Assembly (NCBI GenBank): GCA_963803975.1
Contig: CAWDOY010000047.1
Coordinates: forward strand, 112,096-176,095
Direction of reading: 5' to 3'
DNA length: 64,000 nt
Origin: an uncultured delta proteobacterium
GTDB taxonomy: Bacteria > Desulfobacterota > WTBG01 > CAIYCZ01
Translations under genes and position numbers: made by a program
In this document: one piece after another, positions 1 through 13,677 of the stretch
Numbering within the stretch: the first letter of the stretch is position 1
How the letters are laid out: every line of letters starts with the position of its first letter
Notes under the pieces: model-generated
Seen by the model: only the letters and a program-made list of their open reading frames with translations
Told to the model about the DNA's origin: nothing
The model's database searches: none

Positions 1-338
1 TGCGTTCGCTATTGCAGGATACCTGATATCCAACTAATTTTAATTCCTATACTTTTAAACCAGAAGGAGAAATAATTTAGTATATAATTAGCATGTACTG
101 TGCCATAAAATACTATCCCTATGGTTTAGAAAATCCCTCAATTCCTCCTTACAAAGAGTCCGCCTTTTTTTAATGCTGGGTGTTTAGCAGGGATACCGGA
201 TAGTATGTTGAGAGCAGAGTACAAACAAAAGATTATTTTTTCAAGTTAAATAGTAGCTGCTATTCTGCGACTGGCTCCAGGAACAAAGTTTCTTGACACT
301 CGCGGTAAAACATGTTTAAATTCAATAAGTCCAACAAG

Positions 339-416
<78 letters not shown>

Positions 417-423
417 GTAAAAT

Positions 424-457
424 CAAGCACTTAGCAGCACATGCTGAGTGCTTTTTT
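424..457 (+). terminator. Rho-independent terminator downstream of tRNA-Pro
   Basis: Imperfect hairpin AGCAC..CAGCA/TGCTG..GTGCT followed by TTTTTT. Confidence 0.5.
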
Positions 458-588
458 AGTGTCCACTGTATAGTAATTGTATAGTAGACATGAGATGACA
501 GTTAATTTCTCACGCAAAAAAGCGGAGCCAATTAATTACTGACTCCGCTTTTGTTGTGTAAATTCAGTTTTTGCTATCCACGAACTCC

Positions 589-1941
589 CTAATCCCAAAA
601 CCCTAATATAAGCCTCGGCGTTGCACTCACTGGCCCATGCATAGTTGAGTTGCCATTCAGGTCTATGTCTTCCAGTTTGTAGTAATAGGTCTTTCTGTTC
701 TTCACATCCGTTATCAATAAACTCATAATGATGCACCTTGGATGGATGAACCTTGGGCGGGGATTAATGATGCATTTATTTTGGTGTATTTACCATCTTC
801 TGATTCAGAGCGGTAGAGGTTGAAACCAGCGTTGTCGATTTCGGATTCTGTTGTCCATTGAATAATTTTTGCTTCTTTAGGTGTAGCAGTAAAAGAAGAC
901 AAATTAATGAGTGTTGCTGGTGCAGTTGTTGTGGTCGTAGATTGCTGTATAGTTGTAGTGGTTGATGTTGTTTCAGTCACATATTCATACACCCCCATAT
1001 CATAACCAGCACCTTGGGGTCTTTGAGTACCTTCTATATCAATAGATGGAGCGCCACTGCTCGTTCCACTATCAATACAGAGGGAAACAGGCTGCAGGTG
1101 GAAATCTCCGGGCACCCAATAATCATCCCCTATAGATGCAGTACCATTAACATTCCAGAACCCGGCATAACAAATTGAGGGTTACTGCTAATTTCCCCGT
1201 GCCAGTCCATCCACCGTAATGTCTGAGTAGGAAACGGTAACGAAAATGCTCGAAATTGTATCGGGAAGTCCGTTTGCTGTATTTCCCCAGATTATTGTGT
1301 TAATGACCAGAGCAGGGCCGCAGAATCTTCCGGCGCCTCTTGCATCGGAAAGTTCCGCCATTATCCGCTCTGTTTTGAGATATAGTACAATTCACAATGG
1401 TTGGTGAACCCTCGCTATATATTCCTCCTCCTCCATAAGCGCATAAATTACCACTAATAATACAATTTATAATAAGCGGAGCCCCGTCATAACAATAAAT
1501 CCCTGCTCCATAGACTGAGCGTCCACCATATATAAAACAATTTGAAATAGTTGGTGAGGCGTTATAGCAACTTATATTACCTCCTTCGAAATTCAATCCA
1601 TGAACGATGGTAAAGCCATCAAGCACTGTGTCACGTCCCAGTCCTGAACCAAATGCTACAGCACTGGTGAAACCACTACTACTACTCTGTGCGGCATCAA
1701 TAATAGTTCTGCCCGAACCATTCACTGATTTAACAATCAGCTTTTTGCTTACAATTATTGTCTCATGGTAGGTGCCATCATAGACTAAAATTGTATCTCC
1801 GGTGGTAGCAGCAGTTATTGCAGACTGTATAATGGTGAATGGCTTGCCACTTCCTACCTCAAGGGTTGCCGCATTTATGCTTGAAGAAACTGATATTACT
1901 ATTACCGCGACTGCTAAAAGAATGTTCTTTCGTGTTTTCAT
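589..1941 (-). CDS. Secreted right-handed parallel beta-helix (PbH1 repeat) protein with poly-Thr linker and conserved C-terminal domain. The reading frame is broken by at least three frameshifts.
   Basis: N-terminal signal peptide MKTRKNILLAVAVIVISVSSSINA. Repeated NCxIxGN / GGGIY beta-helix rungs, and the characteristic C-terminal DSG...D..G..RP.G.G.DMGVYEY of pectin-lyase-fold proteins. This is followed by TTTTIQQSTTTTTAPATLINLSSFTATPK...DNAGFNLYRSE...KTYYYKLEDIDLNG..HGPVSATP, pieced together from three frames. GGAGG RBS upstream. Confidence 0.6.
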
Positions 1942-1961
1942 CTTTTGTTCCCTCCTCTAAT

Positions 1962-2758
1962 TCACACTAATAGTTTTGTTAAATTTCTGGAATAGTCCCC
2001 AAACCCACTTGGTGTAGCACTCACCGGACCACGCATGGTTGACTTACCGTTCAGGTCTATGTCTTCCAGCTTGTAGTAGTAGGTTTTTCTGTTCTTCACT
2101 TCAGTATCAATAAATTCATATGACGCACCCTGGGTGGATGAGCCTTGAGCAGGAATTAGTGAGTCATTGATCTTGATATAATCACCATCCTCTGTTTCAG
2201 AACGGTAGAGGTCGAAGCCAGCATTGCCAATTTCTGCCTCTGTTGACGTATTGAATAATGACTGTGCTGAATTGTAGGTGTAGCAGTAAAAGAAGACAAA
2301 TTAATGAGTGTTGGTGGTGTAGTTGTGGTGGTCGTAGATTGCTGTATGGTTGTTGTGGCGGCGGTATCACATATTACATCCCAATTTCCATATCCGCTTC
2401 CGTAACACCGTTCAGGATGAGCGCCACACGTAGATGCTCCACCACCATGTATATTCCAGCAAAAAGTCCAGATGCCACTGATACTGACAAAGTTTGAACA
2501 CTCAAGTCCCAAACCTTCGATATAGTCTGATTAACAACCGCTGGACCAAGCAGGTTGCTGGACCTTGCAAATACTGGATACTGGAATAATTGCTGAGTAT
2601 GCTTCATACGCAGCCTGCTGAGTTTTTGAGGTTTCGTTAGTTTGTCTGGACCCACTTCTGTCACCTGTCCACACAATGCTACATCCTGCTGATGCCTGCG
2701 TAATGTGAAAACCAAAGAGTATGAAAACAATCAGAAATAAAAAAATTATCTTTTTCAT
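1962..2758 (-). pseudogene. Paralog of the secreted modular protein family (signal peptide, Cys-rich module, poly-Thr linker, CTD). It has a frameshift and a ~9-codon deletion at the start of the CTD.
   Basis: MKKIIFLFLIVFILFGFHITQASAGC... N-terminus is ~70% identical to the gene at 2775..3545. Linker TTTIQQSTTTTTTPPTLINLSSFTATP, then the frame is lost (PKSGKVIVQW is missing). The CTD EAEIGNAGFDLYRSETEDGDYIKIN...KTYYYKLEDIDLNGKSTMRGPVSATP is recovered in another frame. Confidence 0.5.
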
Positions 2759-2774
2759 AATTGTCCTCCTCTTG

Positions 2775-3545
2775 TTAATTTCTCAATACGAAAATCAATC
2801 GCGGTGTAACACTCACCGGCCCGTGTATGGTTGACTCTCCGTTCAGGTCTATATCTTCAAGTTTGTAGTAGGAGGTTTTTCTGTTCTCAACATCTCTATC
2901 AACATACTCATAAGATGCCCCTTGGGTGGATGAGCCCTGAGCAGGGATAAGCGAAGCGTTTATCTTGATGAAATCTCCATCCTTTGTTTCAGAACGGTAG
3001 AGATTAAAGCCAGCATTATCGGTTTCTGCTTCGGTGTTCCATTGCACAATAACTTTTCCAGATTTAGGTGTAGCAGTAAAAGAAGACAAATTAATGAGTG
3101 TTGCTGGTGTAGTTGTTGTGGTGGTGGTCTGCTGAATGGTGGTGGTGATGTTGTTACCACATATTACATCCCAGGTGCCAAGTCTTGTCGAGCACCTATC
3201 AGGATTGAAGACATCAGGACAAACTTTATAATCCCAAGAGCCGTCTATACAAACGCTATAACCTGAACCACTCCGGTGACAACCAATACTGGAGATTTGA
3301 CATTGGTCAGAAGTATTCCAATAAAAATTACAATTACAAAGGTCTAACTCACACTGCCATTGCAGGTCATTAAACAAAACCATAGATAATTCTTGTGCTG
3401 CTTGCGGGGTTCTTGATGTTTCATTTGTTGGCACTGAACCACTCAAATCACCTGTCCATACAATATTACATCCTGCTGATGCCTGCGCAATGTTAAAAAC
3501 AAAGAGTCCGAAAACAATTAAAAATATAACAATAATCTTTTTCAT
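2775..3545 (-). CDS. Secreted modular protein with signal peptide, 10-Cys module, poly-Thr linker and conserved CTD. This is the only apparently intact member of the family.
   Basis: Starts at the internal Met MKKIIVIFLIVFGLFVFNIAQASAGC, with an AGAAAGAGGG RBS. Cys-rich region C-x-C-N-C...CHRSGSGYSVC...C...C. Linker TTTIQQTTTTTTTPATL. CTD FTATPKSGKVIVQWNTEAETDNAGFNLYRSETKDGDFIKINASLIPAQGSSTQGASYEYVDRDVENRKTSYYKLEDIDLNGESTIHGPVSVTPRLIFVLRN. Confidence 0.8.
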   Translation of the reverse strand: MKKIIVIFLIVFGLFVFNIAQASAGCNIVWTGDLSGSVPTNETSRTPQAAQELSMVLFNDLQWQCELDLCNCNFYWNTSDQCQISSIGCHRSGSGYSVCIDGSWDYKVCPDVFNPDRCSTRLGTWDVICGNNITTTIQQTTTTTTTPATLINLSSFTATPKSGKVIVQWNTEAETDNAGFNLYRSETKDGDFIKINASLIPAQGSSTQGASYEYVDRDVENRKTSYYKLEDIDLNGESTIHGPVSVTPRLIFVLRN

Positions 3546-3559
3546 AACTGCCCTCTTTC

Positions 3560-4284
3560 TTAATTTCTCAATCCAAATATCAACCCGGGGTTGCACTCAC
3601 AGGGCCATGCATAGTTGACACTCCGTTCAGGTCTATGTCTTCAAGTTTATAGTAATAAGTCTTTCTGTTCTGGAATTCGATATCAGTAAACTCATAGATT
3701 AGCGCCTTGGGTGGGGGAGCCTTGTGCAGGGATCAGTGAGTGTTTATCTTGGTGTAGTTACCATCCTCTGATTCAGCGCGATAGATGTTAAAGCCGGCGT
3801 TGTCGGTTTCGGATTCGGTGGACCAAGCGAGAATAACGCTTTTTGACTTTGCATAAGCTTTAAAATCCCGCAGCGTAATCAGCGTGCTTGATTCGCAGGT
3901 GCTGTTGATACATTCATAGTTCCCCGCAGTGCACTGATACCCTTCACAAGTTTGAAGATAGCCCATGTCAATAACGCCAGATGTGCAGGTATTGTCTTTA
4001 CTGCAGCAGCCCTGCTGAACTTCCGGCACATAGGTTTTAATAGGTTGCATAACCCCCCTGCAGATGTCGCTACAACACTTTTCCCCCGGATAAAAAGTAC
4101 CTCCTGCATAATTTTCACAAAAGGAGGCTTCATTGAGTGGCGGGGTATCTCCACAACGATAACAGCCCATCATTGGCATATAATAATCGCACGCCCCGGT
4201 GTCCTGGGCATTTGATTTGCCGGATGTAACCAATAGAACAGGAAATATGATTGCAAGTAGAGCTATTATTCTGAGTTTTGCCAT
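3560..4284 (-). CDS. Secreted modular protein paralog with signal peptide, 14-Cys module and CTD. It has two single-base frameshifts, one of them in a T homopolymer.
   Basis: MAKLRIIALLAIIFPVLLVTSGKSNA signal peptide with a GGAGGAGGG RBS. The CTD begins KAYAKSKSVILAWSTESETDNAGFNIYRAESEDGNYTKIN. The remainder (YEFTDIEFQNRKTYYYKLEDIDLNGVSTMHGPVSATPGLIFGLRN) is recovered only by allowing 1-nt shifts, for example ccgggttga where ccgggtttga is expected. Confidence 0.6.
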
Positions 4285-4414
4285 GTTCCCTCCTCCTTTA
4301 TAAAGGCGCTATTCTATCAATAATTCTCACCCTGTTTACCGTCTGACAGAGTTTTAATAATCTATTTCCCTATTCCATAAATAAGCCGAGGCGTTGCTGA
4401 TACCGGTCCATGCC

Positions 4415-4480
4415 TCTTAGGGGCTCTTGATCAGTGGCCCGTGACCAGTGACTCGTGGCCAGTGACCCGTGGTTTGTGTT
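4415..4480. repeat. GTCAC-type short tandem/inverted repeat block inside a GGGGCT...AGCCCC hairpin. A related copy lies at 23333-23365.
   Basis: Minus-strand read: ccacgggtcactggccacgagtcactggtcacgggccactg. At 23333: gggtcacgggccacgggtcacgaggcacg. Confidence 0.4.
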
Positions 4481-4484
4481 TTAT

Positions 4485-4640
4485 TTAAGCCCCTGAGATC
4501 AGTCTTGGTGTTGCTGAGACCGGCCCGTGGAATGTGCCTGCTCCATTGTTATCAATATCTTCCAGCTTGTAGTAATAGGTCTTTCTGTTCTGGACCTTTG
4601 TGTCCGTGAACTCGTATGCCGCACCTGAGTGGAGTAACCT
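4485..4640 (-). pseudogene. 3' remnant (last ~45 codons) of another paralog of the secreted-protein family, with no N-terminal part
   Basis: Reverse translation gives GAAYEFTDTKVQNRKTYYYKLEDIDNNGAGTFHGPVSATPRLISGA*. Upstream sequence is unrelated and there is no start codon or RBS. Confidence 0.5.
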
Positions 4641-4820
4641 TTAGATGATTATCACATCTCAATTTTATACATTCGCACGGGATGGAGATTCAAGTACCGT
4701 TGTTCGACCATAGGGACTTTCCGGCCGCTCTTACTGACTTTTTTCATTTAATGGGCGCAAAATTTTCGCCCCATTATATAATTCCCAATAAAATACGCCA
4801 ATCAATGAGTGTCCCCAGTC

Positions 4821-5016
4821 TATTGATAGAAACTTGCTTTCGGATAGAGAAAATATAGGCCGGTGGTGGTTGTGTGTCAACAATTTGTTAAAAGATATGG
4901 GCAGGGGTTAACCGAACAAAAATCAACATCTTGTGGTATGCCTTAAAGGCAGGAAAGTGCAGCTTATGTATCAGCAGCGATGAGAAGTTTAGCAGCCTAA
5001 ATTCATTGATGACTTC
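4821..5016. repeat. Direct repeat copy A (~196 bp) carrying a sigma70 promoter. Copy B is at 6222-6423.
   Basis: ~80% identical to 6222-6423. Shared blocks: ATTGAyAGAAAyTyGCTTT, GGATrGAGrAAATATAGGC, TTGTGTGTCAAyAA, ATCTTGTGGT, TATCArCAGCGAT, AGAAGTTTAGCAGCyTAAATTCATTGATGACTTC. Confidence 0.75.
4852..4880 (-). promoter_or_regulatory. Consensus sigma70 promoter (TTGACA-17-TATATT) reading leftward into the secreted-protein gene array
   Basis: Minus-strand TTGACAcacaaccaccaccggccTATATT. -35 at 4875-4880, -10 at 4852-4857, AT-rich UP-like tract upstream. Confidence 0.6.
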
Positions 5017-5137
5017 TTTTGCAAAGCGCCAGTGACAGTTCAAAAAAATCATAGCAGTAGTAGCAACTCGGGCTCCATGATGCAGGGGGGTTCGTTATCA
5101 AAACCGGAAGATAACTCTCATAATTGCCTCAAAATAT

Positions 5138-6153
5138 TTAATCTAATTTTCTTCCGTCAGCCTGTAAGGCTGCAACTGCTTTTTTAATGTCTTCTTCTGC
5201 ACCACCCCTGATTTTAGGTTTTGCATAGCATCGAAGGGAGATATGAACATTTCCCGGATCTTCAATTAAATCTGCTGTAACAATATGCATGGACAGTGCT
5301 TTTCCATTATATTTTTTTGTCCCAATAAAATATGTATTATAATAGGTTTTTTTATCTTCTTTACATTCAATGTCATTCTGTTTTGCCCAGTCATTTAATA
5401 ATGAGGCTGCCTTGTCAAGATTTGCCTTAACACGCAAACGGGTAAAATAGCATCTTTTATCGCTTTGTGTATTTGTCCATGGCCTTATTGATAATTTGTT
5501 CTTATTTTTATCAGTAAGATTTCCGGGCTGTAATGACTCCCAGAAGCTTCTATATTTTTTTACCTCTTTTTCTTGTAGCGGCGTAAGGGAGAGGATCTTT
5601 GTACGTATGTCATTTGCGAATGCCTCTACCCTTTCAGGAATAAGTGATTCCCACATGTCAAGCCCTGTCCATCCCACTTTATCTGCAGGCATGGTTTTTC
5701 CAAGGATCCATATCAGCCTTGCATCATTTGAATTGAGATAACGGTTTACCTGGCGCCCGCCAAATGCCCCGAGTGTTATTGGTTTTAATTTGGGGAATTT
5801 TTCAAGTGTATCAAAGAAATAACTTCTCCCGCTCGAAAGATGAGGCGGTTTCCCGGGCATGTATATGATTATGGTTTCATCAATTTCACCGCAGGTAAGA
5901 AAGTATGCAATTTCCTTTTTTGTAAGTTCATCATGGAACCTTTCAATAAATTTATATGTTGATTTATGCGGTTTTTCCCATCTTGTGTATCCGCCGATTA
6001 TTACATAGTCATAGGGCTCTACAGTTAAAACTTGATTATACATTTTTACATCCACATGATTTTCAAAGCCGATCAGAGCTTTTAACCAGTATGCAACATC
6101 AGCTGCTGAGCCGTATTGGGTTTCATAAGCTATTAGTCCTTTTTTTCTACCAT
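5138..6153 (-). CDS. Flavodoxin-like-domain protein with a C-terminal domain of unknown function. It has a frameshift in an A7 run near the start.
   Basis: True N-terminus is MVEKKGLIAYETQYGSAADVAYWLKALIG with an AAGGAGGAG RBS. Phosphate-loop-like T..GS, DYVIIGGYTRWEKP and KEIAYFLTCG motifs of the flavodoxin fold. The listed ORF 5138..6055 joins after a 1-nt shift in gaaaaaaagg. Confidence 0.55.
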
Positions 6154-6221
6154 GTTACTCCTCCTTGTTTTATATCTATGTTGTGGTTATCTAAGGAGTT
6201 GCAAGCAATATAAATGCAGCA

Positions 6222-6423
6222 AAGAATTGACAGAAATTCGCTTTTGGATGAGGGAAATATAGGCTGGGGAGGATTGTGTGTCAATAAAAAATATGCCGCA
6301 AAATATGTAAAGGATTATTGCGACAAAAATCTACATCTTGTGGTGGGCATTGAACATTGAAAAGTGTAGACTAGTGTATCAACAGCGATAGAAGTTTAGC
6401 AGCTTAAATTCATTGATGACTTC
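6222..6423. repeat. Direct repeat copy B (~202 bp) carrying a sigma70 promoter. Copy A is at 4821-5016.
   Basis: See copy A. Confidence 0.75.
6256..6284 (-). promoter_or_regulatory. Consensus sigma70 promoter (TTGACA-17-TATATT) about 95 nt upstream of the flavodoxin-like gene
   Basis: Minus-strand TTGACAcacaatcctccccagccTATATT. -35 at 6279-6284, -10 at 6256-6261. Confidence 0.6.
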
Positions 6424-6492
6424 ATCTGGTAATATGCAATTGTCTGCTACGATCAAAATCGTGATTTTTTGTTTATCGTTAAAGCTCCCGAT

Positions 6493-6921
6493 TTATGTCG
6501 TCGTCTCGGCACTGGTAAAGCCGGTAAAAACCACCGGGATGATTTGAGAGTATTCAAAGAGAATTACACCCGTTCCGGCAATAAATGCTGTTGGTTCAAA
6601 GGAGGAACCAACCAGAAGCATAATGATGTCGCCTGTTTTGGTTCCGATTTTAGCATTAAGCGAGATATAGGCGCCTGTAAACAGGCTCAAGACGGTAACG
6701 TAAAATCCATCACCCTTAAAACTTGAAATAGTAAGACCGCCGGTATCGCTGAATAAAACCGGTGAGCTGAAAACATCCAGTGAGCAGACGAAATAGCAGA
6801 CGTACTCATTGCCGGTAACAACATTCGGGCCAATACTGTTTTCAGCACGGGCGGTGCTTATGAGTAAACCACCTGCGAGAAGCATACAGCACAATGTAAT
6901 TTTTATTATTTTTCTGTTCAC
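6493..6921 (-). CDS. Secreted hypothetical protein (GTG start)
   Basis: AAGGAGGT RBS 7 nt before GTG. Signal peptide VNRKIIKITLCCMLLAGGLLISTARA. No recognisable domain. Confidence 0.45.
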   Translation of the reverse strand: MNRKIIKITLCCMLLAGGLLISTARAENSIGPNVVTGNEYVCYFVCSLDVFSSPVLFSDTGGLTISSFKGDGFYVTVLSLFTGAYISLNAKIGTKTGDIIMLLVGSSFEPTAFIAGTGVILFEYSQIIPVVFTGFTSAETTT

Positions 6922-7003
6922 ACGTACCTCCTTATTTATTTTGTCTGGTATGTCATTATTTAATATGGTTAAAATCCCTGTTTTAGAAACTGACAGGGTT
7001 CCT

Positions 7004-7825
7004 CTATTTGACTTCCGGGGGCTGAAGCGGGACTTGGAATGGCTCGGCCAGCGTGAAATCAAGGTTGGTTTGAGACGGAATGCGAACTTCCGGACCTTTG
7101 GTCAATGCCTGATATGCTAGAGTTCCACCTGCTCCAACGCTCGCACCAATGGCTGCACCCTTGCCTCCGCCGAAAATTCCTCCAATTATTGCACCCGCCC
7201 CACCTCCAAGCACTGTCCTTTTGGCAGTCTGCTCACCGCGAGATGCGCTCTTATGTCGCACACTGCTGCTGTTTAACAGAATGGACTGCCCCTGTACAAC
7301 CAAATGATCCAAAACGACTTCAAGCTCACTTGAACCCTTAATGCTTCCTGAGGATTTAGCATTTACCAGTTTGATATACACATCAGTTCCCTTGGGTATA
7401 ACGACCTGATTACCAACTGTAATAGGAACATAGAGGGAGGAATGAAACAGGGAGCCAACCTGGCTCGACCTGGAATTAATTGAATCGATCATCTTGACCT
7501 GTATCTCTGTCCCTGCAGGGATCGTGATTACAGTTATTACCTTAATTGCGTCATTGACCTTCTTGATCCCGGGAGTGACACCAGCCAGCTCAACAGCCTT
7601 CTTGTGAATAGCATCATTTGATACCTCGCCTGACAAAGTAGCCTCCCCCTTTGACATGGTAACTTGAATCGATGCGGTCTTCAATTGGGGCTCTGAATAA
7701 AACTTTGCCTGGAGGGCCTGCGTCATTTCCTCATCACTCGGGGTCCTGGAACAGGCTGCGCAACCTAATGCCAAAACGACCAGTAGCAACCAATACGCTG
7801 AAAGATTTTTTAATGTGGTAAGCAT
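7004..7825 (-). CDS. BON-domain lipoprotein with C-terminal glycine-zipper region
   Basis: Lipobox LALGCAAC. BON-like segment QVTMSKGEATLSGEVSNDAIHKKAVELAGVTPGIKKVNDAIKV. C-terminal GGGAGAIIGGIFGGGKGAAIGASVGAGG. Confidence 0.65.
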   Translation of the reverse strand: MLTTLKNLSAYWLLLVVLALGCAACSRTPSDEEMTQALQAKFYSEPQLKTASIQVTMSKGEATLSGEVSNDAIHKKAVELAGVTPGIKKVNDAIKVITVITIPAGTEIQVKMIDSINSRSSQVGSLFHSSLYVPITVGNQVVIPKGTDVYIKLVNAKSSGSIKGSSELEVVLDHLVVQGQSILLNSSSVRHKSASRGEQTAKRTVLGGGAGAIIGGIFGGGKGAAIGASVGAGGTLAYQALTKGPEVRIPSQTNLDFTLAEPFQVPLQPPEVK

Positions 7826-7920
7826 TTTTTAATTCCTTTTTTCGTCTTTGCTTCAACCCAGCAAGTTAAAGGACAACAGCGCACTTTAATGACCCTATCT
7901 GGCAATAAATAAAATGCAGG

Positions 7921-8349
7921 TTACAGATTATACAGTTCCTCATCGTTCAATAATACAAATCCGGCTTTGGAAAGCAATGTCACTGCTTCAGGCATTTCCT
8001 CCACATCAAAAATCATTACCGCCTGATTTTTATCTTTAATGACAAACCCGTAGGCATCTTCGATATTGATTTCCTTCCGGGCAAATACTTCTGCGATCTT
8101 CTGCAGGCCGCCGGGCTGATCATCCATGAGGACGGCAATGACCTCCCGCAGATACGCAGTGAGCCCTTTTGCCCGCAACGTTTCAGTGGTTTTTACCGGA
8201 TCGTTGACGATCAGTTTAATAATGCCAAAACCCTGAGAAGTGGCGATGGTTATGGCCCGCATATTAATATGTGCGTCTTTAAGAATTTTTGTAAGCCGCT
8301 CGAGCCGTCCCGGTTTGTTCTCTGCGAAAATACACACCTGCTGCGCCAT
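7921..8349 (-). CDS. ACT-domain protein (PaaK-associated tandem ACT)
   Basis: ~140 aa with two ACT-like halves (VCIFAENKPGRLERLTKIL... and IAVLMDDQPGGLQKIAEVF...). Sits immediately downstream of a PaaK gene. 45% identical to the ACT gene at 23372..23803. Confidence 0.8.
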   Translation of the reverse strand: MAQQVCIFAENKPGRLERLTKILKDAHINMRAITIATSQGFGIIKLIVNDPVKTTETLRAKGLTAYLREVIAVLMDDQPGGLQKIAEVFARKEINIEDAYGFVIKDKNQAVMIFDVEEMPEAVTLLSKAGFVLLNDEELYNL

Positions 8350-8430
8350 GGCAAACCTCCCTGTTCCCCGTTAGGCGTTCTTGATCAATTGCCTTCAGTG
8401 TACTATATTCCCCTGTGAAAAATTATCAAA

Positions 8431-11441: not shown

Positions 11442-11629
11442 TACTCAATATAGCCCAAACCGCGCAGCTGTTCTGATACTGCCTTATCATCATCAGGTGA
11501 CGCCTCAAGCAGGGCCAGCTCTTTTTCAATAACAGAGGATACAAACTCTTCAAAACTGCTGTACCCCGCAGCTTCCGCAGCCTTTTTTGCCCGCTCATAC
11601 AGCTTGCTGTCAATTTTTACTTTGGTCAT
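11441..11629 (-). CDS. Small (62 aa) ribbon-helix-helix-like protein
   Basis: MTKVKIDSKLYERAKKAAEAAGYSSFEEFV resembles CopG/ParD-type RHH N-termini. Translationally coupled to the downstream membrane protein. Confidence 0.4.
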   Translation of the reverse strand: MTKVKIDSKLYERAKKAAEAAGYSSFEEFVSSVIEKELALLEASPDDDKAVSEQLRGLGYIE

Positions 11630-11646
11630 GGCTCGCTCCCTGGCAA

Positions 11647-13677
11647 TTATACTTTAAATATATTTCGTCCGGTCATGGTCGCCGGCACCTTTACGCCGAA
11701 TGCCGTCAATATTGACGGCGCAAGGTCAGTAAGGGCCGACGCAGGGCTTATGATGTCCTGATTGCTGAACAGTATGCCCGGCAGTTCAGAGGAATCCATG
11801 CAGTGGTCAGCTGCCCAGGCTGAATCATTATCTGAAAGTATCTCTTTGGGCATATCTCCCAGGCATGATTTCCACGAGCAGCGGAAATCGCGGCTGTAGC
11901 CGATAATTAGATCCGGCGCATACTTCTGCTGCGGCCCTGAATATATCTTGTCTGCTCTGCGCGCTTTGCAGATAACGGCCCTGCCGTCGCTATCCCGCAC
12001 TGCCTCAAGCTTCTGCACAAGCTCTTCCAGAAGGGTTTCCCGCTCTGCAGCGGGGTCCACAATCCCGTACTGCTCCCGTCCTCTCTGGTTAAGATAGAGG
12101 CTGTTGATGCCAAGGCCGTAGGCCCTGGTTTTTGACCAGTCAACGTCAGAAAACAGTGACGTGCACTCAGGCGGACCCAGGTACCCGTTATCCCGCAGCC
12201 AGGTGTTCAAGTTGAACTGGCGCCTGAAGTTTGCAAATCCGTGATCACTCATGATAATGATATGCGCCGTATCACCGTACCGCTTCATGAGCGCTCCGAC
12301 CAGCGCGTCCATCCTGCCGTAGAGATCCTGCACATGGGTGAAATATTTTTGCGCTTCAGCTGCCGTGCGGTAGGGATGTTTTGCCGCGGTGTCCCACCAC
12401 AGCATGTGGGACTGCATGTCGGTACTGGAAAAATAAAAAAAGAGCAGCCCGTCATCATAATTGCGCAGCGCGTAGTCAAGCAGCTGCATGCGCTCCTGCA
12501 GCACATACTCTGCCTGCCGGACAAATTCATCATCACTGAAAACCTTGTTTGAGAGGGCCTTATGGTCTTCCTGAAAACCCGTATTGTAAAAAAGCCCCAG
12601 CTGCTGAGACAGCTCCGGAAGAAATGCGGGCGGCTCGGTAATTTTTATGGCCGGGTCGTTAGGATCAGTATTTATGGGGGTAACATACAGCCTGAAGTTG
12701 GGGGCCGCTTCCTGCAGATAAAACCGGCAGATGCCGCTTATTTTTTTGTCAGGCACCAGCGCGGGGGTTGAAAGGCTGTACTCGATTCGCACCCAGGGGC
12801 TCCATTCACCCTGCTTCATAAGTATCGTCTGCTGCTGAATTTCGACGACAGCAGCCCTGTCGTTGCGGTTGCGATGCACGATAAATTCTATGGTTGCGTC
12901 CTGCGGTTTTTTAAGAAAGGTATTTTTTGGGCCAATTAAAATAAGCGGCCGGGAGGTTTCGCCGTCAAAATATATTTTTGACCGCCTCCCTCCCCCTTCG
13001 CTGACGGGTTTCTCCGGGCCGTCTTCGGCAAAGTGCTGGTAGGTTCCATAAGAGCCCAGCAGGTCAGGGGTCCCCATTCCTGCAAGGCAGCGGTGATTCC
13101 CATGCGTTGAGGAACTGGGCGGGTAGTTTGACGGCAGATCGTAAAACGTTGAGGGAATACCCGCTGCATCAAGATACTCCCAGAACGGCACGCCTTCGCG
13201 CTTCAGCACGGTCCGGGGAGGGGTGTGATTGAAGGGCCAGAAATCAAGCTGCATTTTATGCTCGCCCAGTTCCAGGTAACCGACACCGGGCATTGTTTCA
13301 GCAGCTGCAAAAAAAGGTAACGCCTGTTTTTCCGGATTGCGGTGGATAAAATCAAATATACCGTGGGAGCCGGGGCCCGCGCCGTTGATAAAATTTGCCC
13401 AGGCAACCGGGCTTTGCGGAGGGTTGCTGGTAGCAAGCGGCCGGAATCCATTATTCTTTCTCAGCCGGTCAAGATTGGGCAGCCGGCCCTGCTCCATCAA
13501 ACGGATGCAGAGCAGCGGGTCCATGCCGTCAAAACCTATGACAATAACTTTTTTGCCCGCAACCCTGCGCGGCTTTTGTTCCTGCGCGCTTGCTGCGCGG
13601 GAGCTTATTCCAGCTGCCAGCGCTGCTGCAGCCGCGGTCGACTGTTTTATAAAATCCCGTCTGGTAAGATGTTTCAT
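11647..13677 (-). CDS. Alkaline phosphatase-superfamily protein (type I phosphodiesterase / nucleotide pyrophosphatase family) with a Tat signal
   Basis: Tat motif TRRDFIKQSTAAAAALAAG. GFDGMD metal-site motif, PISPVAW-like PQSPVAWANF, SDHGF. Paralog of 13690..15798. Confidence 0.75.
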   Translation of the reverse strand: MKHLTRRDFIKQSTAAAAALAAGISSRAASAQEQKPRRVAGKKVIVIGFDGMDPLLCIRLMEQGRLPNLDRLRKNNGFRPLATSNPPQSPVAWANFINGAGPGSHGIFDFIHRNPEKQALPFFAAAETMPGVGYLELGEHKMQLDFWPFNHTPPRTVLKREGVPFWEYLDAAGIPSTFYDLPSNYPPSSSTHGNHRCLAGMGTPDLLGSYGTYQHFAEDGPEKPVSEGGGRRSKIYFDGETSRPLILIGPKNTFLKKPQDATIEFIVHRNRNDRAAVVEIQQQTILMKQGEWSPWVRIEYSLSTPALVPDKKISGICRFYLQEAAPNFRLYVTPINTDPNDPAIKITEPPAFLPELSQQLGLFYNTGFQEDHKALSNKVFSDDEFVRQAEYVLQERMQLLDYALRNYDDGLLFFYFSSTDMQSHMLWWDTAAKHPYRTAAEAQKYFTHVQDLYGRMDALVGALMKRYGDTAHIIIMSDHGFANFRRQFNLNTWLRDNGYLGPPECTSLFSDVDWSKTRAYGLGINSLYLNQRGREQYGIVDPAAERETLLEELVQKLEAVRDSDGRAVICKARRADKIYSGPQQKYAPDLIIGYSRDFRCSWKSCLGDMPKEILSDNDSAWAADHCMDSSELPGILFSNQDIISPASALTDLAPSILTAFGVKVPATMTGRNIFKV

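Follow-up and report, generated by a model that had tools for sequence, protein, structure and literature searches.

A dispersed intergenic repeat family with predicted sigma70-type promoters flanks a flavodoxin-like gene in an uncultured delta proteobacterium

Why would an entire promoter region stand on both sides of a single gene? This question is raised by a 64,000-nucleotide stretch of contig CAWDOY010000047.1 from an uncultured delta proteobacterium (hereafter the window, meaning the whole stretch analyzed), in which two direct repeats, 4822-5021 (copy A) and 6226-6428 (copy B), lie either side of a flavodoxin-like gene. A sequence-only reading had described them as a ~200-bp direct repeat, about 80% identical, carrying a strong promoter. 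It had called the duplication unusual and had offered two explanations, co-regulation with a nearby array of secreted-protein genes or a promoter cassette that has moved. Our analysis favors, at a probability of roughly 0.55, a propagated promoter or regulatory module that has been spread and reshuffled by recombination between its copies in the low guanine-plus-cytosine (GC) accessory DNA of uncultured anaerobes.

The repeat itself was confirmed. Copies A and B aligned at 74.5% identity over 200 columns by BLASTN (E 1e-29), and the mean column identity was 80% by MAFFT. Three pairs of co-linear blocks were found, 4822-4883 with 6226-6287 (77%), 4916-4962 with 6323-6369 (77%), and 4983-5021 with 6390-6428 (92%), and the spacing between paired blocks was 1404-1407. 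A 50-nt stretch from GAAGTCATC to TGATACA matched at 47 of 50 positions, and a family profile extended weak homology to 5064 in copy A and 6466 in copy B. BLASTN, profile, and motif searches of the 64-kb window found no third copy and no isolated motif. The repeat could have been the tail of a longer duplicated segment created by misassembly. This is excluded because contigs L001 and L004, assembled independently from other samples, show an identical layout of the two copies at 98-99% identity.

Copies A and B are members of a dispersed family. Species-representative genomes were scanned with a conserved 19-nt pattern to locate members, and the family profile was built from ten copies. The profile returned 22 copies at E < 1e-9, corresponding to ~18 distinct loci, plus half-copies. 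Two of the 22 lie in the window. The rest fall in L001-L004, in JAPLIX01 (a metagenome-assembled genome, MAG, from Lake Pavin with module copies on six of its contigs), in a Syntrophaceae MAG, and in a MAG labelled Aminicenantes. In all, five or more related genomes or MAGs carry members of the family. L057-L059, three remote relatives found in other metagenomes, have in common with it only end motifs such as CTGCTATG, and the core profile failed to match any of the three up to E <= 10. The TTGACACACAA promoter is also present in two of these, L057 and L059. Viral contigs gave short chance-level matches only.

The genes that follow the modules are unrelated to one another. They encode a Flavodoxin_5-like protein, lipoproteins, an AAA ATPase, a DUF4337 protein, a CmcI methyltransferase, a multihaem cytochrome, an alpha/beta hydrolase, and an Lcl_C protein. 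Modules sit in patches with a GC fraction of 0.36-0.45, against 0.52-0.57 for the genomes that contain them. They occur as arrays, three consecutive modules in L015 and three in L001, and also as solitary copies amid ordinary genes (UbiD, a MacB-type permease, a pseudouridine synthase). The pair in the window is not unusual, being two members of a family dispersed over ~18 loci before unrelated genes, and the suggestion of a promoter cassette that has moved was essentially right. As a separate observation, at L001 14724-16924 a module stands ahead of a gene pair encoding an HprK_C/ScmC-like protein and a radical SAM protein, which could be a small peptide-modification cluster.

This distribution bears directly on the simplest alternative, a local segmental duplication that copied the promoter native to the flavodoxin-like gene. 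Such an event would account for two copies 1.4 kb apart around one gene. It is refuted by the family distribution, with related copies at ~18 loci in several genomes and beside unrelated genes, and we give it almost no weight. The identity between copies A and B is moreover just 75-80%, and each has nearer relatives outside the window, copy A scoring higher against the L015 and L049 copies than against copy B. Orthologous flavodoxin-like genes elsewhere (73-76% identity) stand in ordinary neighborhoods with no module alongside, and for this reason the module is not the ancestral promoter of this gene.

The unit that defines the family is a core of ~150 nt upstream of the promoter, rather than the promoter. 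The additional copies in related contigs share mainly this region (window 5064-4914 and 6466-6320, minus strand), and the core was found with other promoter segments or without any. The family alignments thereby bore out the earlier remark that ~150 bp upstream of the promoter is conserved. Read on the minus strand of the window, the module consists of the terminator hairpin of the preceding gene (in several copies), the core, and an interchangeable promoter segment. The shared hairpin of these several copies is CAGGGTCAGCAAYGGCCCTG followed by a T run. After the terminator come the motif ATAT(A/G)TTGTGG, ~30 nt, and then the core, which starts with CTGCTATGATTTTTTTGAACTGCCA and finishes with ACCACAAGATGTTGATT. 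Three kinds of sequence follow the core. The subtype 1 segment, present in both window copies, L015_6898, and L049, is made up of an A+T-rich stretch, TTGACACACAA, a 17-nt spacer, TATAYT, and a conserved leader of ~30 nt. The subtype 2 segment is ~190 nt long and ends in TTGACA/T-17/18-TATAAT/TATCAT. The third alternative is unrelated sequence. In the core of copy B, the 5' 45 nt (6466-6425) are a variant, here called beta, that is also present in L034 and L037. The main-family homology of copy B begins at GAAGT (6423), where the variant joins the main family. The copy B module starts (~6468-6472) 21 nt past the stop of a 142-aa gene, and the copy A module begins ~48 nt past the flavodoxin-like stop codon.

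The two best promoter-like sites between 3500 and 8500 were 4880-4852 and 6284-6256 (minus strand), with 11/12 matches each. TTGACA-17-TATATT is present on the minus strand of both copies as first read. The further description of it as a perfect consensus did not hold, the -10 hexamer being TATATT against TATAAT. Across six independent subtype 1 copies, the -35 hexamer was invariant at 6/6 positions and the -10 hexamer at positions 1, 2, 3, and 6. The spacer was always 17 nt, and ~5/17 of its positions were invariant, namely the first five bases. Hexamers and spacer length are thus kept while the spacer sequence drifts, as expected of a sigma70-type promoter, and the assignment of a near-consensus promoter of this type to each window copy is upheld by the conservation of the hexamers. 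This selection footprint points to a functional promoter of the window type. Of the 14 copies followed by a co-oriented gene, 13 have a strong forward promoter (TTGACA, at least 10/12), and this promoter was missing where the next gene is convergent.

Within the core, a ~25-bp block, ACTTCT-N-TCGCTG-N-TGATACATAAGC, was 97% conserved over 17 non-orthologous copies, a level exceeding that of alignment-column permutations (p < 0.0005). This conservation points to a constrained site, most simply a putative protein-binding site, and we infer a regulatory role for the core on this basis. A conserved non-coding block adjoining a strong promoter could also suggest a small RNA, a cis-regulatory RNA, or a small-peptide gene, and a 54-aa open reading frame (ORF) runs across copy A (4888-5052, minus strand). 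The core, however, lies downstream of a terminator and upstream of a promoter. Rfam gave no match to it, whether judged by gathering score or with E <= 10 allowed, an RNAalifold consensus built from 21 copies had an energy of 0 on both strands, and single-copy folds were no better than shuffles. An RNA or peptide gene is accordingly scarcely credible here. A coding core was also rejected, since in other copies one-nucleotide indels and stop codons interrupt all reading frames, that of the 54-aa ORF included. Readings of the core as a sigma54 or an extracytoplasmic function (ECF) promoter were discarded for misfit of spacing, as judged by eye.

Comparison of strains located the points at which this region is rearranged. 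Ten close-relative contigs were retrieved from public assemblies via the ACT-domain protein encoded upstream. Beyond the ACT, BON, and 142-aa genes, the DNA varied between strains in all ten. Contig L004 leaves the window at 4914, the core end of copy A. Contigs L002 and L003 depart from it at 6425, where GAAGT lies within copy B. For L009 and the JAPLIX homologue the point of departure is 6468-6472, the start of the copy B module, and L001 parts from the window at 4634. The point at which L002 and L003 part from each other lies in another module. We propose that strain differences begin and end at module edges because modules recombine as portable homology.

Three junctions fall within ~2 nt of the same GAAGT, which could indicate a different kind of exchange. 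The module could be the junction of a cassette system, combining an attC-like and a promoter-like part, with site-specific exchange at a fixed point of the core at or near GAAGT. The co-oriented arrays of unrelated genes with a repeat between them (three in L015, three in L001) would suit such a system, as would strain differences that start and stop at module edges, three independent junctions right past the same GAAGT, and the inverted pair GAAGT...ACTTC inside the core. Breakpoints at the edges of shared sequence are, however, the exact product of homologous recombination, and several copies are solitary among ordinary chromosomal genes. No attC-like hairpin was seen, the single-stranded DNA fold z-scores being +0.3 to +1.1 and the RNAalifold consensus energy 0. 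No integron integrase or recombinase was found beside the arrays, in the window island or in the annotated loci, the only trace being a 100-aa integrase fragment in L004. We regard this reading as improbable. An undescribed non-integron form of cassette exchange, in which each unit would bring its own terminator, protein-bound core, and promoter and some recombinase would act at GAAGT to give strain-specific arrays, appears just as improbable. The recurrence of the GAAGT junction is the chief point in its favor.

Several further features of the variable region were recorded. Half-modules containing only the 5' core occur at L003 9465-9520 and 9934-9990 and at L002 11069-11125 and 11543-11600. 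They turn to unrelated sequence right past GAAGT, and both continuations contain GCAGCA...ATAG, which may mark a further module type. The module at L002 13120-13200 has an internal deletion that fuses CTGCCAGTCAC to AATATATT, and its L003 orthologue (11544-11694) is complete. An IS3-family insertion sequence (HTH_Tnp_1 and rve ORFs, 31-nt inverted ends) lies in the variable region at L003 12802-14058. The recombinase fragment of L004, at 13220-13522, is of the tyrosine-recombinase (Phage_integrase) type.

Transposition was considered as a means of dispersal. The core could be a non-autonomous element resembling a miniature inverted-repeat transposable element (MITE), bounded by AATCAATATATTGTGGT and ACCACAAGATGTTGATT, mobilized in trans, and lying near or carrying outward-facing promoters in the manner of the Correia elements of Neisseria. 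Its multi-copy occurrence, short length, intergenic position, lack of coding capacity, and A+T richness would suit such an element, as would the existence of copies that are truncated or have internal deletions. The motif ATAT(A/G)TTGTGG stands upstream of the core in ~9 copies, with its reverse complement at the core 3' end. In L058 this inverted repeat is perfect (12/12, p = 0.005), and in three other copies it matches at 10/12 (p about 0.1). In most copies, however, including both in the window, the repeat is not significant (p = 0.05-0.45). No flanking target-site duplication was seen, and the homology passes both putative ends, into the shared terminator hairpin on the left and the promoter segments on the right. 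No transposase lies near modules in the MAG loci, the IS3 element of L003 has unrelated ends, and no empty site was found among strains L001-L009. A MITE-like origin is therefore rather unlikely.

The same inverted motifs could make the ~170-bp core an inverton, in which short flanking inverted repeats allow a segment to flip and the downstream gene to vary in phase. Short inverted motifs do flank a segment of a size typical of invertons such as fimS and those of Bacteroides. Orientation speaks against flipping, because in all ~25 copies the core points the same way between the terminator on its left and the promoter on its right. When metagenomes were scanned for the flipped junction, three matches were obtained, all of them normally oriented remote relatives. 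The strong promoter lies outside the segment, neither strand of the segment contains a positionally conserved promoter, the inverted repeats have little statistical support, and no recombinase occurs near modules in the annotated loci. We consider an inverton very improbable.

The coordinates of the features at this locus are collected in Table 1.

Table 1. Coordinates of the two modules and adjoining features in the window
Feature	Position	Strand	Remarks
Copy B, whole intergenic module	6226..6472	-	From divergence of L009 and MAG locus L034 to end of copy A homology
Copy B core, profile positions 5-153	6320..6466	-	nhmmer E 1e-36; L002/L003 junction at 6425
Most conserved core block, copy B (ACTTCTATCGCTGTTGATACACTAGT)	6370..6395	-	
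Copy B predicted promoter, TTGACA-17-TATATT	6256..6284	-	Predicted start near 6249; A+T-rich stretch upstream
Copy A, whole intergenic module	4822..5090	-	Ends where copy B homology ends
Copy A core, profile positions 3-152	4914..5064	-	nhmmer E 2e-45; L004 diverges at 4914
Most conserved core block, copy A (ACTTCTCATCGCTGCTGATACATAAGC)	4962..4988	-	
Copy A predicted promoter, TTGACA-17-TATATT	4852..4880	-	Predicted start near 4845
142-aa gene, no Pfam match	6493..6921	-	Last gene common to all strains before the variable region
Flavodoxin_5-like gene	5138..6153	-	ATG 6153-6151; GGAGG 6164-6160
Orphaned leader past copy A	4634..4821	-	Collinear with L001; homology stops at 4634
Stub, 3' end of secreted-protein paralogue	4503..4641	-	

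On the minus strand the order is the ACT-domain gene, a BON-domain gene, the 142-aa gene, copy B, the Flavodoxin_5-like gene, copy A, the stub, and the secreted-protein array. The flavodoxin-like ATG follows copy B after ~96 nt and is preceded by a GGAGG ribosome-binding site, in agreement with the ~95-nt leader first assigned to copy B. In the window, an A7 run (T7 on the plus strand, 6140-6146) shifts the flavodoxin-like gene out of frame. L001 and L004 have A8 at this position, giving an intact 338-aa gene, and the A7 frameshift may reflect an error in sequencing, a pseudogene, or switching by slippage.

Copy A had been taken for the promoter of the secreted-protein array. In L001 this module, with its leader, runs into a 205-aa lipoprotein gene, and in the window the leader is joined directly at 4634 to the 3' stub of a secreted-protein paralogue. 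Because L001 keeps the lipoprotein gene that the window has lost, copy A is a promoter without its gene, an orphan whose original cargo, that lipoprotein gene, has been deleted in the window. For the next intact gene, a 183-aa array gene at 4284-3733, a separate extended -10 candidate lies at 4338-4311. With the lipoprotein cargo in L001 and this -10 candidate, a dedicated role of copy A in array expression was not borne out. The flavodoxin-like gene and the array may be co-regulated.

The array and the orphaned leader showed additional features. The secreted-protein paralogues occupy 589-4284, with stubs at 4503-4641 and ~4350-4400. The array genes have a common C-terminal domain of ~100 aa with motifs TESETDNAGFNLYRSE and YYYKLEDIDLNG...HGPVSATPRLI, and several members are split across frames or cut to 3' stubs. 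The same domain ends the Lcl_C protein in L004. Between two gene stubs, at 4417-4472, lie three tandem 14-nt units, CAGTGGCCCGTGAC, CAGTGACTCGTGGC, and CAGTGACCCGTGGT, and a related 23-mer is found at 8371-8393, upstream of the ACT gene. The orphaned leader contains a GC-rich hairpin, GGGGCGAAAATTTTGCGCCC, at 4750-4771 (minus strand), which is kept in L001 and has no T tail.

The wider setting is a low-GC island. Positions 1-8000 have a GC content of 41-43%, against 50-55% in the remaining window, and a tRNA-Pro(GGG) gene lies at 340-416. The island between this gene and the PaaK-like/ACT genes differs in content in every relative (L001-L005, L009). No repeat of the tRNA-Pro 3' end that could serve as an att site for the island was found in the window.

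These results are best accommodated by the propagated module. It would act as a portable promoter or regulatory region, and any gene downstream of it would be transcribed from the sigma70-type promoter. Copy B would transcribe the flavodoxin-like gene through the ~96-nt leader. Copy A would be stranded, and at most would read through the stub toward the secreted-protein array. The modules would at the same time be portable homology patches, with copies spreading mainly via module-module recombination, and we infer recombination as the mechanism of spread from the positions of the breakpoints.

Several points weigh against this interpretation. Promoter activity and the transcription starts are predicted from sequence. 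No known transcription-factor motif was recognized in the core, and part of the core conservation could reflect recent common ancestry. Copies without a promoter or with a convergent next gene exist (L047, L051, L034_3836), and persistence of the core without a promoter suits a selfish or recombinogenic repeat at least as well. The shared GAAGT junctions could also point to site-specific rather than homologous recombination.

If the propagated-module reading is correct, this family would be a clear natural case of promoter reuse on unrelated, horizontally acquired genes in uncultured anaerobes. The promoter unit, which some copies place behind a terminator, would also be the homology patch at which strains reshuffle accessory genes. 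In practical terms, the profile or the pattern ACTTCT-N1-2-TYGCTG-N-TGATACA offers a handle for finding candidate co-regulated accessory genes in MAGs. The 25-bp invariant block is a candidate regulator-binding site, and ACTTCTCTCGCTGCTGATACATAAGC is a candidate sequence for such binding. The promoter itself is predicted to be a potential strong native promoter for genetic tools.

Among known systems, integron cassette arrays share with the module co-oriented unrelated genes, a conserved repeat between them, and strain-variable content beside conserved genes. The module differs in having neither an attC hairpin nor an IntI integrase, and each unit has its own promoter, whereas integrons rely on a single Pc. 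The invertible promoters of the Bacteroides capsule loci are a second parallel, since there one family of promoter regions stands before several unrelated loci and allows common control. In the module, by contrast, we found neither inversion nor proven flanking recombinase sites, nor a recombinase that goes with it.

Correia elements (CREE/NEMIS) of Neisseria and promoter-carrying MITEs resemble the module as short, multi-copy intergenic sequences that supply sigma70-type promoters and fall into subtypes (PMC10969869). Correia elements are bounded by clear 26-bp terminal inverted repeats, duplicate a TA target, and have their promoters within the element or at the junction (PMC10969869). The module differs in its weak inverted repeats, the absence of a detected duplication, homology that continues past its ends, and a promoter outside the core. 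Its end motif TATATTGTGG may bear a superficial likeness to the Correia end, TATAGTGGAT.

The propagated-module reading corresponds to the phenomenon described as the putative mobile promoters of Matus-Garcia, Nijveen and van Passel (2012), which are operationally defined at positions -150 to -50 from start codons (PMC3575422). In both cases, similar non-coding sequence stands ahead of non-homologous genes within and between related genomes, with no known insertion sequence (IS) element, no Rfam family, and no established mechanism of mobilization, and in both the proposed role is transcriptional rewiring (PMC3575422). The putative mobile promoters are recognized by an identity of 80% or more across 50 nt or longer upstream of non-paralogues, and copies A and B share 47/50. 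The two differ in placement. With leaders of ~95-300 nt, the shared part of the module lies mostly further upstream, the core in most copies being 170-450 nt upstream of the start codon, and copy B has only its promoter and leader inside the -150 to -50 interval. They also differ in composition, the module consisting of a core plus exchangeable promoter segments and occurring also without a downstream gene. No current view is overturned by these findings, as promoter-carrying dispersed intergenic repeats are already known in other bacteria. The module is a previously undescribed member of this class of dispersed, promoter-bearing intergenic repeats.

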